Source: Armatimonadota bacterium (lineage in GTDB: Bacteria; Armatimonadota; Zipacnadia; Zipacnadales; JABUFB01). Taken from it: a stretch of DNA of 64,000 nucleotides. Below the pieces are notes generated by a model that worked only from the letters and a program-made list of their open reading frames with translations, was not told the DNA's origin and ran no database searches. The number at the start of each line of letters is the position of its first letter. Position 1 is the stretch's first letter. Position numbers and translations under genes: made by a program. The stretch is taken from positions 9,144 to 73,143 of the forward strand of contig JABUFB010000011.1 in assembly GCA_013314775.1 (NCBI GenBank). Reading direction: 5' to 3'. This document shows, piece after piece, positions 13,618 to 53,104 of the stretch.

Positions 13618-16458
13618 CTACACCAGGGCGATGTCATGCTCCTTCAGAGCGCGCCAGATGCTGTGCATGAGCCTGCCCTGCACCGTGGGCAGACTGTCGA
13701 TGTGGTCGGTCCACGCGACAAGCTGGAGGTTCAGACCGTTCGCCGCGAGCTTGCTGAACAGAACCTCGGGCTCGGGGGTATCTAGTACCGAATCTTGAGA
13801 GATTGCGGCTTCACGTAGAACCTCGGCAACGGTGTCAAAGTCTGTGTCCGGCGCAACAGCGACGTCCACCACCAGGCGCACCCGGCGATCCCGCTGGCTC
13901 GAGACGACCACGTTCTGGGTGTAGAAGACGGAGTTAGGGATGACCACCAGGCGATTGTCCTGGGTCCGAATTGTGGTTGAACGCACGGTGATATCCGCGA
14001 TGGTGCCGCTCTGTCCGGCCACGTCAACATAGTCGCCGGCGTTGATAGACCGGTCCAGCATGATGATGAGGCCGCAGATGGTGTTCTTCGCAATATCCTG
14101 GCTTCCGAAGCCGATGGCGATGCCGAACATCCCGGCGAAAGCGGCGAGGATGCTCAGTTGCATCCCCGCCACCAGAATCGCCAACACGATGCCCCCTGCC
14201 AGGAGGCAGTAGTACAGTACACTCCCCACGGCGTGCCGGGTGCCGTGATCCCACCTTTGGGATAGGGCGGCAGATTCCTGCACGCAACGCCGGGCATACC
14301 CTGCCGCCCAGGAGGCAACCACCCATACTAGGATCGCTTTGGCGATGGCGAGTATGGATATCTGCGCGCCCTTGACATCAATCAGCGGCTGTGACACCAA
14401 GGCAATGAGGTCGTAGAGATGATAGCGACGGACTCCCCAGATGCGAGCGAGCAGCAGGGCACTGAGGAGCACGAAGGCAAGCCGGATGACCTGCTGCATC
14501 CATGGTCGGTGGACTAAGCCCGCCGGACCGTGGGGTGTCACCGGGAACCGGGTCATTAGCTCCCGGTTGAGGCGACCATATGCCGGCCACGCAACAGCCA
14601 CGAACAGAGCGCTGAGCACCAGGGAACGCGCCAGGTAGCTGCTCAGGTTGGCGTAACCCATCGCTGTCATTACAAGCAGAGCCACCGCGGCCAGCGAGAC
14701 GAATGCGTTGAGCCTCGTCGCCCATTCGGGGAGACCGCAAGCAGCTTGCCCGGAAGCGTTGCCGATGAGCGCCAACGAACCGCGTGCAGAGTTTGTCAGC
14801 CAGATGAGGAAGATGACCGCGCCCAGACCGTAGAGCAGTTTCAGCGCGAGCTCCACGTCGGCGTGGGGATAATCGTAAAGGGCGAGGGTGTGGATTACTG
14901 GCAGAAGCAGTGCCGAGTAGACCGCGATGGCGTGGGCCGCGGTCGCAGTGCGCCGGGACGTCGCGGCGTCACACCGCAGCAGGCCGAAGCCCTCTTCTCC
15001 AGGAGCCAGCACAATGCGCACCAGCGGTCTCGCCGCCGCGTACGCGCACCAGGCAAAGACTAACCCTGTAAGCGACAGCGACCCCGAAGGCGAGAGGGGC
15101 AGGGACTGCACTCCCGCGGCCAGCAGCGCGAAAGCAAGGGCGGCACGCACTATCTCAAAGCCACGGGCATAGCGCCAGAGGGTGAGATCGCGCTGCTCCT
15201 GTGGCAGCATCTCCAGCCGGCTTCCCATTTCATCCGTGAGACGCCGCCTCAGCCGCCGGAACCCGACCGCCAGCAGCACCCCGGCCAGCCCGAGCCCGGC
15301 GAGTTCGGTTATCGGCCACGATGGCGGCGTACCGTCATCGGGCTCGAACTCAGCACCCGGCCAGACCCCTGTGCGCAGGTAGGCGCCGATTGACCGAATC
15401 AACCGGCGAAAATCGTCCGCGGCCGTCACAGGCGTCTGGGCGGTGATGCGGACCTCGCTGCGACGCAATAGTCCGCGGGTCTCGGCGACCTCCAGTGCGG
15501 CGTCCAGACGGGGAACGATGTCACTCACCAGACGTGCGTTAGCCACAGCCATCTGTGCGGCCGCCTGGAAGTCCGCCTTTGCCTGAGTCGCCAGCGGGAT
15601 CCCCGATTCCAGGGTGCTCACAAGCGTCCGGTCAAGCCGCAGAGCTCGGGCACGCTCAAGAGCTCGGCTGTATGCGTCTATCTCGGCCCCTACATCCTGC
15701 GCGGCCTGTGTGAGTTCGTCGTACAAAGCGTCGAAGCGTTCCTGCCCGGCGATCAACCGCTCCCGCTCCTCACGCCCCTGCGCAGGCCTGACACGCCCCC
15801 GACGTATCGCCCACGGGAGATGTACTCCCAGTTTCTCAAGCCTCTTGTTTTCCTTCTCCAGTTCGCGAAGCCGGCGCGCAGCCAAGGCGGCCGTCATGCG
15901 CAATTCACTGCGCCACAAGACGACCTTGTGAGTGAGGGCGTCGCTGCTCAATGCGGCTTGCCCGGGTCTTGCTCTTCCGCCATCGGCTTCCGGTCGCGAC
16001 AGGGATTCCAGGGCCCCGATCACCTCCGCCTGCCGGCGCGAGCGCGTGACCGGTGCCTTGACACGTTCCGAGGGCTCCTCGGCTTCCGGGGTCTGAACCG
16101 GGGCCTGCTCCCCCTCCGCAGCCCGGTACATCTCGCTGTCTGAAGATCCCGCCTCGCCTTCTGCCGAGGTCGCTGGCCCTGCATCAGTCGGCTCCGCGAC
16201 TGCATCCCCATTCGCAGGCCCCGGAGATGCGGAAGAAGGGGCATCCGGCGCGTCGACCTCCTCTGGGGCCGGAGCCGATGAAGTGCCATCCGCGGAGACA
16301 TCGCGGTTCCCGCCGGGTCCAGGCAACGCATGCATGGAACCTGGAGCTTCGGGCGCTCGGTTCTCATCCTGCGCGATCGCGAGGCCGATCGCTGTCGAGG
16401 CCAGCAAAAGGGTCAGAACCGCAGGGAAGATGCTGTTGCCGGGACTCATTCTGATCAT
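13618..16458 (-). CDS. Large mechanosensitive ion channel, MscS family (MscK/KefA-like architecture)
   Basis: The C-terminal 'GFGSQDIAKNTICGLIIMLDRSINAGDYVDV...IRTQDNRLVVIPNS' is the MscS pore/beta-domain signature. It is preceded by multiple TM helices, a coiled-coil periplasmic region and a signal peptide. ATG at 16458 was verified. Confidence 0.85.
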   Translation of the reverse strand: MIRMSPGNSIFPAVLTLLLASTAIGLAIAQDENRAPEAPGSMHALPGPGGNRDVSADGTSSAPAPEEVDAPDAPSSASPGPANGDAVAEPTDAGPATSAEGEAGSSDSEMYRAAEGEQAPVQTPEAEEPSERVKAPVTRSRRQAEVIGALESLSRPEADGGRARPGQAALSSDALTHKVVLWRSELRMTAALAARRLRELEKENKRLEKLGVHLPWAIRRGRVRPAQGREERERLIAGQERFDALYDELTQAAQDVGAEIDAYSRALERARALRLDRTLVSTLESGIPLATQAKADFQAAAQMAVANARLVSDIVPRLDAALEVAETRGLLRRSEVRITAQTPVTAADDFRRLIRSIGAYLRTGVWPGAEFEPDDGTPPSWPITELAGLGLAGVLLAVGFRRLRRRLTDEMGSRLEMLPQEQRDLTLWRYARGFEIVRAALAFALLAAGVQSLPLSPSGSLSLTGLVFAWCAYAAARPLVRIVLAPGEEGFGLLRCDAATSRRTATAAHAIAVYSALLLPVIHTLALYDYPHADVELALKLLYGLGAVIFLIWLTNSARGSLALIGNASGQAACGLPEWATRLNAFVSLAAVALLVMTAMGYANLSSYLARSLVLSALFVAVAWPAYGRLNRELMTRFPVTPHGPAGLVHRPWMQQVIRLAFVLLSALLLARIWGVRRYHLYDLIALVSQPLIDVKGAQISILAIAKAILVWVVASWAAGYARRCVQESAALSQRWDHGTRHAVGSVLYYCLLAGGIVLAILVAGMQLSILAAFAGMFGIAIGFGSQDIAKNTICGLIIMLDRSINAGDYVDVAGQSGTIADITVRSTTIRTQDNRLVVIPNSVFYTQNVVVSSQRDRRVRLVVDVAVAPDTDFDTVAEVLREAAISQDSVLDTPEPEVLFSKLAANGLNLQLVAWTDHIDSLPTVQGRLMHSIWRALKEHDIALV

Positions 16459-16786: not shown

Positions 16787-16815
16787 GGCGGGGCCGCAGG
16801 GGACACAGCCCCGCC
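16787..16815 (-). terminator. GC hairpin 11 nt downstream of the peroxiredoxin stop
   Basis: GGCGGGGC(16787-16794) and GCCCCGCC(16808-16815) are separated by a 13-nt loop. There is no clear U-tract, so this is a weak intrinsic terminator call. Confidence 0.4.
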
Positions 16816-16825
16816 TGTGATGCTG

Positions 16826-17431
16826 TCAGAAGGCTTCGTCTGGTTTCCAGACTTCCCAGACGCGGCCCACGAGGTCCGGGCCGGGGCTCAGGGTGGCCTT
16901 GCCCGGCTGCCAGCCCGAAGGCGTGGCCTCTCCAGTTTCGCGCACACGCTGGAAAGCCTGCAACTGGCGGATGAGCTCGGACACGTTCCGGCCGACGGAG
17001 GGGGTGAGAATCTCCATCGCCTGGATGATCCCATCCGGGTCGATGATGAAGCGCCCGCGGTTGTGCAGGCCCGCTACGGCATCATAGACACCGTACACCC
17101 GGCCGATTGCGCCCGTGGGGTCGGCAACCATGGGGTACGGTATGCCGCCTTCCACCATTTTCGACAGTTCGACTTCGTCCCAGATCTTCGCGGTGAAATG
17201 CTTGTCGGTGCTCACGGCGAGGACTTCTGCATCCATCCCGGCAATCTCATTGTACTTGACGGCGACCGCCGCCAGCTCCGTCGGTCATACGAAGGTGAAT
17301 GCAGCGGGGTAGAAACACATCACCACCCACTTCGGGCGGTACTCGGACAGCTTCAGGGTCTTGAACTCGCCACGATGGTACGCAACAGCCTCAAAGTCAG
17401 GGGCCTCCTTGCCGATGGTCGCCACTTTCAT
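16826..17431 (-). CDS. prxU: Selenocysteine-containing peroxiredoxin (AhpC/Prx1-type scaffold; UGA at 17285-17287 read as Sec)
   Basis: Two track ORFs (17285-17542 and 16826-17236) are in the same frame. The joined translation reads '...[14 protein letters not shown]-[TGA][27 protein letters not shown]...', which is the canonical FTFVCPTE active site with TGA in place of the peroxidatic Cys codon. ATG 17431 is preceded by AAGGAG; the alternative start at 17542 adds an Ala-rich 37-aa extension. Confidence 0.8.
17258..17282 (-). promoter_or_regulatory. Candidate bacterial SECIS hairpin immediately 3' of the in-frame UGA
   Basis: The minus-strand RNA is UGA-CC-GACGG-A-GCUG-GCGG-CGG(U)C-G-CCGUC. 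It has a 5-bp lower stem (GACGG/CCGUC), a short upper helix with a possible bulged U, and a G-rich apical loop. The structure starts 3 nt after the UGA. It was folded by eye only. Confidence 0.45.
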
Positions 17432-17746
17432 CGCTGAACTCCTTGCCGGTGCGGCAGCTGCCGCTTCTGTTGCGAGTTCCTTCTCCGCGCCCAGTGGACC
17501 GGCCGCGGCTTCGACACAGCCTTTCTTCTTTTCGTCAGCCATAGAACCACATCCTCATGTCGATCTGGGCTGGTAAAAACGACACGACAAGGTGCTAATT
17601 CGCCGGGCGAGCGGTTCACTCCTTGCGTGACGCAGGCAGTTGAGGGAACACCGGCTGACCTGGAGCAATAGACAGGGTGCGATCGAAGATGGAGGAGTTG
17701 TGCGCGATGTGAGGCGAGACGCCGCCGGAGTTGCGTGAATTGAGTC

Positions 17747-18112
17747 TCAAATAGGCAGATTCATCGCCACCGCGCGTTTCAGATCTGCGAGGCCAAAGGG
17801 CTTCCGCAACATGGGTGCCTGGACCCCGCGTGCCTGTTCGTGCATCTCGCGCTCCGGCAGACCGGTCGTGAGAATTACAGGCACTTCGGACCACTCGGGA
17901 TCCTTTCGGATGGCCAGATAGAGGTCGCGACCTTTTCCGTCGCCCAGCACAAGATCCAGCAAGACGAGTTCGGGGGGAGGCCCGCACAGAAGGGATAGTG
18001 CTTCTCGCAGGCCCGTGGCAACGACAGGAGTGTACCCAAGACTTCTTACGCAGTCGGCCAGAACCGCCAGCTGTACCGTCTCGTTTTCCACGATGAGTAT
18101 TCTGATATCCAT
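17747..18112 (-). CDS. Single-domain response regulator (CheY-like receiver)
   Basis: The translation 'ILIVENE...LVLLDLVLGDGKG...VPVILTTG...LRKPF' carries the acidic pocket, phospho-acceptor Asp, Thr and Lys of receiver domains. There is no output domain. ATG at 18112 was verified. Confidence 0.85.
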   Translation of the reverse strand: MDIRILIVENETVQLAVLADCVRSLGYTPVVATGLREALSLLCGPPPELVLLDLVLGDGKGRDLYLAIRKDPEWSEVPVILTTGLPEREMHEQARGVQAPMLRKPFGLADLKRAVAMNLPI

Positions 18113-38937: not shown

Positions 38938-39213
38938 TTACGCCCCAGCGACCGGGGGCACTATTGACACCACGGCGCCGTCCCGCAGTGGCGTGGCAAG
39001 ACCATCAAGATCGTGGATATCTCGTCCGTCCACGAAAACGCGGACGAAAGACTTCAGTTCACCGGCTTCGTCATACAGCGAGCCCTGCACACCCGGGAAT
39101 GCGGCCACCAGCTCCATCAAGGCGTCGTTTACGCTGCCGGCGGCAGTCGTGAGGGTCTTCTGGTGGTTCGTGTGCCTGCGCAATGGAGTGGGCAGTTTGA
39201 TGACTGCGGGCAT
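38938..39213 (-). CDS. MoaD/ThiS-family ubiquitin-like small protein ending in ...PPVAGA
   Basis: The 91-aa protein has an ATG at 39213 after a GGAGGT RBS. The C-terminal 'VRVFVDGRDI...DGAVVSIVPPVAGA' closely resembles the MoaD/SAMP-type 'FPPVSGG' tail. The terminal codons GGG GCG TAA were read directly from the sequence. Confidence 0.75.
   Translation of the reverse strand: MPAVIKLPTPLRRHTNHQKTLTTAAGSVNDALMELVAAFPGVQGSLYDEAGELKSFVRVFVDGRDIHDLDGLATPLRDGAVVSIVPPVAGA

Positions 39214-49010: not shown

Positions 49011-53104
<4,094 letters not shown>

Follow-up and report, generated by a model that had tools for sequence, protein, structure and literature searches.

A peroxiredoxin gene of the PrxU family, annotated as two fragments, with a UGA codon that probably encodes selenocysteine at its peroxidatic position

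The stretch of DNA analysed here, called the window throughout, comprises 64,000 nucleotides (64 kb) of the Armatimonadota assembly GCA_013314775.1 (contig JABUFB010000011.1, positions 9,144 to 73,143). On its minus strand lies a peroxiredoxin gene, prxU, whose reading frame is interrupted once, by a TGA at the codon for the catalytic, or “peroxidatic”, residue. Judged from its sequence, the gene is very probably functional, with a product that has the Prx1/AhpC fold and carries selenocysteine (Sec) as peroxidatic residue 86. It is a mis-annotated additional member of the PrxU family, which is already curated and widespread, and not a new kind of system. The immediate consequence is an annotation fix, in which one selenoprotein of 238 amino acids replaces either two fragments of 85 and 136 amino acids or a protein with tryptophan at its catalytic site. 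The gene also makes it likely that its host uses selenium and has a peroxide defence based on Sec.

The two fragments are minus-strand open reading frames (ORFs) at 17285-17542 (85 amino acids) and 16826-17236 (136 amino acids) which share one frame and are separated by a sole stop, the TGA at 17287-17285. On the 3' side of this internal TGA the frame is open over 152 codons, up to the TGA stop at 16828-16826. This arrangement had been pointed out in a first reading of the sequence (the original prediction); its coordinates and translation were reproduced, and the read-through translation that it gave was matched exactly. The same reading held that the stretch between the TGA and the next Met is peroxiredoxin-like, which proved correct, since these codons are conserved like the remainder of the gene and encode the PTEL active-site helix; it counted 18 codons in the stretch, where there are 16. 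It also expected the gene to be mis-annotated as two fragments, as public gene calls indeed have it: gene callers produce the 85- and 136-residue pieces in both of the other assemblies considered below, and the 85-residue ORF is on record in NCBI.

The assignment of the joined product to a family was made with sequence profiles, for which the TGA was entered as Cys. The product matches the Pfam domains AhpC-TSA (3.4e-33), Redoxin and 1-cysPrx_C (PF10417), and it exceeds the cut-off of 270 bits for the NCBIfam equivalog model NF040737 (“peroxi_PrxU”), scoring 333.4 bits as a 201-residue protein and 345 bits as a 238-residue protein. The PxxxTxxC/U motif of the active site is present with the in-frame UGA at its peroxidatic position (P79-A-A-F-T83-F-V-U86). 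In the alignment of the joined product with Prx/AhpC proteins, which had been proposed as a check on the original prediction, the TGA falls on the peroxidatic Cys of FSFVCPTEL and FTFVCPTEL in the solved AhpC structures 1we0 and 5b8a. Profile and structure alignment thus agree with the claim that a peroxiredoxin is encoded here with TGA in place of the Cys codon of the FTFVCPTE motif.

The related peroxiredoxin groups fit less well. The AhpC model TIGR03137 scores 191.6 bits against a cut-off of 272, and the C-terminal resolving Cys of AhpC, found in its EVCPA motif, is missing from the window protein, which reads GEATPSGW with Thr207. Models of the 1-Cys Prx6 type (NF009668, NF009669 and related ones) score 104-112 bits against cut-offs of 211-261, and of the features of 1-Cys peroxiredoxins only the generic PF10417 domain is matched. 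The fold was evaluated on a Cys homologue (P0006, 65% identical to the window protein) using an AlphaFold model with a predicted local distance difference test score (pLDDT) of 88. The best PDB matches of this model are Prx2, Prx3 and AhpC, with target-normalised template modelling (TM) scores of 0.90-0.94, which places it in the Prx1/AhpC fold. The product is probably thioredoxin-dependent, a name that rests on the NCBIfam model; a Pfam scan found no thioredoxin or thioredoxin reductase gene among the predicted genes of the 64-kb window.

The TGA is widely conserved among relatives. One genome per GTDB species was scanned and the closest 80 loci were taken. The homologous codon is TGA in 79 of these loci (82 gene copies) and TGC in the remaining one, and the TGA loci are spread over Chloroflexota, Zixibacteria, Ignavibacteria, Thermodesulfobacteriota, Acidobacteriota, Nitrospirota, Bacillota, Myxococcota and others. 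In an 87%-identical relative (L090) the codon is likewise TGA, and over the 155 codons compared from the TGA onward this gene differs from the window gene synonymously at 55 codons and non-synonymously at 18, so the downstream half is translated and under purifying selection. Sec peroxiredoxins had been described in the original prediction as known but rare. That they are known holds, given that PrxU has been verified and has a dedicated NCBI model; that they are rare does not, as they are common.

The same codon is a source of error in public catalogues. Among 120 homologous proteins in the databases, 43 have Trp at the peroxidatic position (FTFVWPTE) and 40 have Cys; the Trp arises because gene callers translate TGA by code 4 or 25, and the catalogues therefore carry the wrong catalytic residue for many Sec-peroxiredoxins.

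A recoded UGA in bacteria is expected to be followed by a selenocysteine insertion sequence (SECIS), and a hairpin of this type lies within the ORF, starting 12-14 nt 3' of the TGA and encoded by L-A-A-V-A-V codons. It is the minimum-free-energy (MFE) structure of a 38-nt segment (-12.4 kcal/mol). Its conservation was evaluated on an ungapped alignment of 83 TGA genes by explicit pair counts and mutual information, because the RNAalifold consensus was empty. Numbering from the U of the UGA, G22 and U23 are invariant, and 87% of the cells of the helix 13-21/24-32 are paired. The pair 21-24, which joins the third positions of an Ala and a Val codon, is A-U in 52 genes, G-C in the other 31 and broken in none, while the pair 18-27, which also joins two third positions, is G-C in 69, A-U in 7, C-G in 3, G-U in 3 and unpaired in 1. 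The covariation score of the helix is 0.268, compared to 0.140 ± 0.009 in shuffled alignments, none of which reach it (0/500), and to at most 0.120 when the register is slid. When the 351 variable column pairs are ordered by mutual information, helix pairs take ranks 1, 2, 4 and 7, and the intervening ranks belong to pairs of neighbouring columns, of which nearly all share a codon. The hairpin is unchanged in the 87%-identical relative, whereas synonymous sites that flank it are not. In the five Cys-form relatives, the pair 21-24 is broken or a wobble in three. This covariation identifies the hairpin immediately 3' of the UGA as a putative bacterial SECIS.

Bacterial SECIS elements have a stem of 6-8 bp and, some 20 nt past the UGA, a G that is conserved in the loop (PMC4605307), and in the E. 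coli fdhF element the apical bases are G23/U24 (PMC8659212). Like the fdhF element, the present hairpin is located in the ORF some 11-14 nt past the UGA, with a stem of 6-9 bp and an apical G-U about 20 nt downstream. Unlike it, the hairpin has a register one nt nearer the UGA (G22-U23 as against G23-U24); it is without the bulged U17, and instead the bases at 16/29 are mismatched as U-U in 24 of the 83 genes and form a G-U wobble in the window; and its loop-flanking bases 21 and 24 are always paired, as A-U or G-C. The binding of SelB to the hairpin is putative. A SECIS that lies wholly within Ala-Ala-Val-Ala codons and shows perfect synonymous covariation is a lead for mechanism rather than a new kind of system.

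Several results weigh against the interpretation of the gene as a Sec-encoding prxU. Taken alone, the hairpin is no stabler than shuffled G+C-rich sequences (z = +0.50 over the 76-nt segment and -0.41 over the 38-nt one), RNAalifold returns no consensus structure for the 83-sequence alignment, and a scan of the whole window against Rfam at gathering thresholds gives no match. Part of the stem follows from the protein sequence, because positions 1-2 of the codons for Ala-Ala-Val-Ala (GCN GCN GUN GCN) necessarily pair, and two of the five Cys-form relatives retain most of the stem. Pfam and tRNA scans found no selA, selB, selD or tRNA-Sec in the 64-kb window. Finally, the insertion of selenium at residue 86 is itself deduced from these sequence features, which has to be counted on the same side.

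Some of these points bear on what the UGA might otherwise mean. The UGA may be recoded through the SECIS and SelB and still be read, wholly or in part, as Cys by tRNA-ReC (SelC*), in which case the enzyme would be at least partly a Cys form. This SelB-dependent UGA-to-Cys recoding (Vargas-Rodriguez et al. 2018, as cited in PMC13582414) uses the same UGA and SECIS signal and is reported in Armatimonadota, to which the lineage of the window probably belongs. A 2026 survey found tRNA-ReC-like genes beside canonical selC in 5/5 Armatimonadota genomes that have UXXU-type hydrogenases, and it cites evidence for the decoding of UGA as Cys by such tRNAs in the presence of a downstream SECIS (PMC13582414). 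Cys forms of the PrxU family exist, moreover, and are presumably functional. On the other hand, no such tRNA, and no tRNA of any kind, is seen in the 64-kb window, and in the survey tRNA-ReC accompanied canonical selC and did not replace it. The retention of TGA over TGC or TGT across phyla, in 79/80 loci, argues that Sec itself is selected. Reading by tRNA-ReC is accordingly regarded as unlikely, yet it is the one rival that keeps some weight.

The remaining explanations deny recoding altogether. A nonsense mutation at the catalytic Cys codon, leaving two decaying, non-functional halves, would need only a single-base change from TGC or TGT to TGA, and it would be in keeping with the two fragments given by gene callers and with a window that holds no Sec machinery. 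A pseudogene of this kind is nevertheless very improbable, given the same TGA in related loci across phyla, the covarying hairpin at a fixed distance from it, the uninterrupted frame and the excess of synonymous differences downstream of it, and a whole protein that passes the PrxU threshold. A sequencing or assembly error has next to no chance of being the cause: an 820-bp region that includes the TGA is identical in two Logan assemblies of separate sequencing runs (SRR6186653 and SRR16606022), one of which has a single synonymous C/T difference elsewhere. The Trp that many metagenome protein catalogues show at this codon superficially resembles code 4 or 25, that is, a variant code with TGA as a sense codon for Trp or Gly, which deserves as little credence as the error. 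TGA is the stop of 18 of the 39 other predicted genes of the window, and in some of these, including dehydrogenases, chromate-transporter halves and ThiF genes, the Pfam match extends to the last residues. Such ordinary use of TGA as a stop excludes a reassigned genetic code, and an enzyme with Trp or Gly as its peroxidatic residue would be dead. It is just as hard to believe in two independently expressed proteins, one of 85 residues from the N-terminal half and one of 136 residues starting at ATG 17236. Public gene calls do list each ORF as a gene, but a complete thioredoxin fold is encoded by neither half, the 16 codons from the TGA to Met102 belong to the conserved active-site helix, and no Met is conserved at the 17236 position, where the alignment of relatives has L, V and others. 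A functional prxU with Sec at residue 86 is the interpretation followed below.

The start of this gene is most likely ATG 17542, which gives a product of 238 amino acids with Sec at position 86. The 201-residue product from ATG 17431, on which the original prediction was based, is probably too short. The upstream start adds 37 N-terminal residues and extends coverage of the 233-position NF040737 profile from 34-232 to 1-232. It is preferred because of this fuller coverage, and because the upstream Met and the Cys motif that follows it are kept in the 87%-identical relative, where the internal Met38 is Ile. In view of the substitution of Met38, 17431 is probably not the main start, even though a good AAGGAG precedes it. 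This strong AAGGAG, 7 nt before the internal ATG (17431-17445), lies within the coding region of the N-terminal arm; it could give rise to a second, short isoform without the Cys arm, yet the Met is not conserved in that relative.

The predicted peroxiredoxin active site is complete, consisting of P79, T83, U86 and R162. Where AhpC has its C-terminal resolving Cys, 70 of the 83 TGA genes encode Thr and only two encode Cys, so some other thiol would have to resolve the oxidised Sec. The window protein and most of its relatives have an N-terminal arm, 37 residues long in the window, with a conserved Cys motif of the form [DE]-[GS]-C-V-[KQE]-P-A-[KRG]-G-P-[ILV] followed by a variable linker. The pattern is matched by 71 of the 83 TGA genes; in 59 of these the Cys stands 74-78 residues before the Sec, and in the window the distance from Cys9 to Sec86 is 77 residues. 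In the AlphaFold model of the Cys homologue, a 10-residue block that contains most of the motif has a pLDDT of about 70, compared to about 52 on either side, and forms a beta-bridge, a weak hint that the block may dock onto the fold. It is possible, though doubtful, that Cys9 is the resolving residue, which would move to the active site and bond with Sec86 as a selenenylsulfide, to be reduced by thioredoxin; if so, this would explain the loss of the C-terminal resolving Cys in the PrxU family. Another candidate is Cys76, which is conserved (Cys at -10 in 81/83 TGA genes); the homologues without Cys at this position are nearly all Cys forms, most of which have other cysteines. No description of an N-terminal resolving Cys in Prx1/AhpC-type or PrxU-type enzymes was found in the literature searched. 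The coincidence of an N-terminal Cys arm with the loss of the classical resolving Cys is a further lead for mechanism.

In two planctomycete-type Cys forms (L088 and L089), a signal peptide precedes the N-terminal Cys motif, and a Lactamase_B-rhodanese gene lies directly 3'.

A mechanism consistent with these features may be put together as follows. The UGA at 17287-17285 would be recoded rather than read as a stop, the SECIS hairpin downstream of it recruiting SelB loaded with Sec-tRNA(Sec), which would insert Sec. The selenolate of Sec86, held in the PxxxTxxU pocket with Arg162, would then attack peroxide and be converted to a selenenic acid. The oxidised Sec could be resolved by Cys9 on its flexible arm, by Cys76 or by thioredoxin directly, and thioredoxin would regenerate the enzyme. 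We infer both the presence of selA, selB, selC and selD in the genome and the identities of the resolving thiol and of the reductant.

The PrxU of Eubacterium acidaminophilum is a short form of about 203 amino acids. The window protein shares with this enzyme, and with the NF040737 family, the Prx1/AhpC-type fold, the UGA or Sec at the peroxidatic position of PxxxTxxU and the lack of a C-terminal resolving Cys; it differs in its N-terminal arm and in its host, which here is a probable Armatimonadota metagenome-assembled genome (MAG), the original host of PrxU being a clostridial amino-acid fermenter. That Sec-peroxiredoxin is cited in PMC13188914 as experimentally verified in Eubacterium (Peptoclostridium) acidaminophilum (Sohling et al. 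2001), and by 2006 the count of Sec-containing Prx genes across bacterial genomes had reached 12 (PMC1794560). With the typical 2-Cys enzymes of the AhpC and Prx1-Prx4 type (TIGR03137; PDB 1we0, 4ma9, 7kiz) the window protein has in common the fold, the sequence FTFVxPTEL, the conserved Pro, Thr and Arg, and the C-terminal 1-cysPrx_C or arm region. Unlike them, it has Sec for the peroxidatic Cys, Thr207 for the resolving Cys, Cys for Phe at -10 and an added N-terminal Cys arm. The patterns at the level of the family, namely the embedded SECIS and the N-terminal Cys arm, are of more interest than the window gene itself. Neither a coding-embedded SECIS with synonymous covariation nor the N-terminal Cys arm was found discussed in the literature searched, which is no proof of novelty.

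Individual loci among the relatives show further variation. The only TGC locus among the 80 (L041:10235-10282, an Acidobacteriota MAG) retains a full hairpin, GGCGGC-GGUC-GCCGCC, and looks like a recent Sec-to-Cys conversion. Three genomes hold two TGA-containing prxU copies about 1-5 kb apart (L042 at 7701 and 10250, L057 at 5913 and 11255, L079 at 6662 and 7537), and in L042 and L079 one of the copies has neither the N-terminal Cys arm nor a Cys at -10. A contig labelled “archaeon” (L032:3358) carries a prxU with a bacterial-type in-ORF hairpin directly after the TGA, which suggests a mis-binned bacterial contig or horizontal transfer.

Table 1. Coordinates in the window of prxU and of the features associated with it
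Feature	Position	Strand	Basis
prxU coding sequence, 238 codons including that of putative Sec86, plus terminal TGA stop 16828-16826	16826..17542	-	one frame across the TGA; NF040737, 345 bits
UGA codon, residue 86, peroxidatic position of PxxxTxxU (P79...T83..U86)	17285..17287	-	structure alignment; TGA conserved in relatives
SECIS-type hairpin in the ORF, nt 14-31 from the U of the UGA; stem UGGCGGC(G)/(C)GCCGUCA, apical G22-U23 at 17266-17265	17257..17274	-	MFE and covariation
Shine-Dalgarno-like GAGGA, 9 nt 5' of ATG 17542	17552..17556	-	read from sequence; putative
N-terminal arm motif G8-C9-V-E-A-A-A-G-P-L17; Cys9 codon 17518-17516, candidate resolving Cys	17492..17521	-	family motif; function putative
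Cys76 codon, 10 residues before Sec, Phe in AhpC/Prx1; alternative candidate for a resolving or structural thiol	17315..17317	-	function putative
Arg162 codon, conserved peroxiredoxin active-site Arg (NRGRFIIDP)	17057..17059	-	invariant column; aligns with the Arg of AhpC DRGTFIIDP / DRATFVVDP
Thr207 codon, at the position of the AhpC C-terminal resolving Cys	16922..16924	-	alignment to 1we0 and 5b8a, GEATPSGW vs GEVCPAKW
G+C-rich hairpin 11 nt past the stop, possible terminator, weak U tract	16787..16815	-	11-bp stem, -24.5 kcal/mol, z = -1.63; tentative

On its 5' side prxU is preceded, at a distance of 204 nt and in the same orientation, by a lone response-regulator gene (17747-18112), and 367 nt away on its 3' side lies a gene for an MscS-type channel (13618-16458). 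The hairpin past the prxU stop is folded as well by 11 of 200 shuffled sequences, and a scan for consensus terminators did not call it. In a related locus (L087) a gene for a FUR-family regulator lies just upstream, on the opposite strand. No tRNA-Sec was found beside prxU in 60 related loci. A scan of the window for coding-like in-frame TGAs that might indicate other selenoproteins returned only prxU, antisense artefacts and the stop of a ThiF gene which is followed by ThiS. Support for the Sec trait is available by analogy at the level of the lineage, the 2026 survey having described Armatimonadota MAGs with Sec-type hydrogenases and selC (PMC13582414).

Elsewhere in the window, the minus-strand segment 37081-41967 contains two half-size chromate-transporter genes and two ThiF-family genes that flank a ThiS-family gene (38938-39213), and then an ATP-binding cassette (ABC) permease and an SBP_bac_11 binding protein; this cluster may be a sulfur-carrier or oxyanion uptake module. 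An ORF at 44624-46009 matches UPF0236 (1.2e-10), a family which we take to be transposase-like, and may mark a mobile element. Most named relatives of the enolase encoded at 49014-50294 come from Armatimonadota, in line with the probable lineage of the host. This enolase is 100% identical to an NCBI protein labelled Acidobacteriota and 99% identical to one labelled Armatimonadetes/Armatimonadota, and all of its named matches at 74-77% identity carry the latter label, which points to a binning conflict among public MAGs of this organism.

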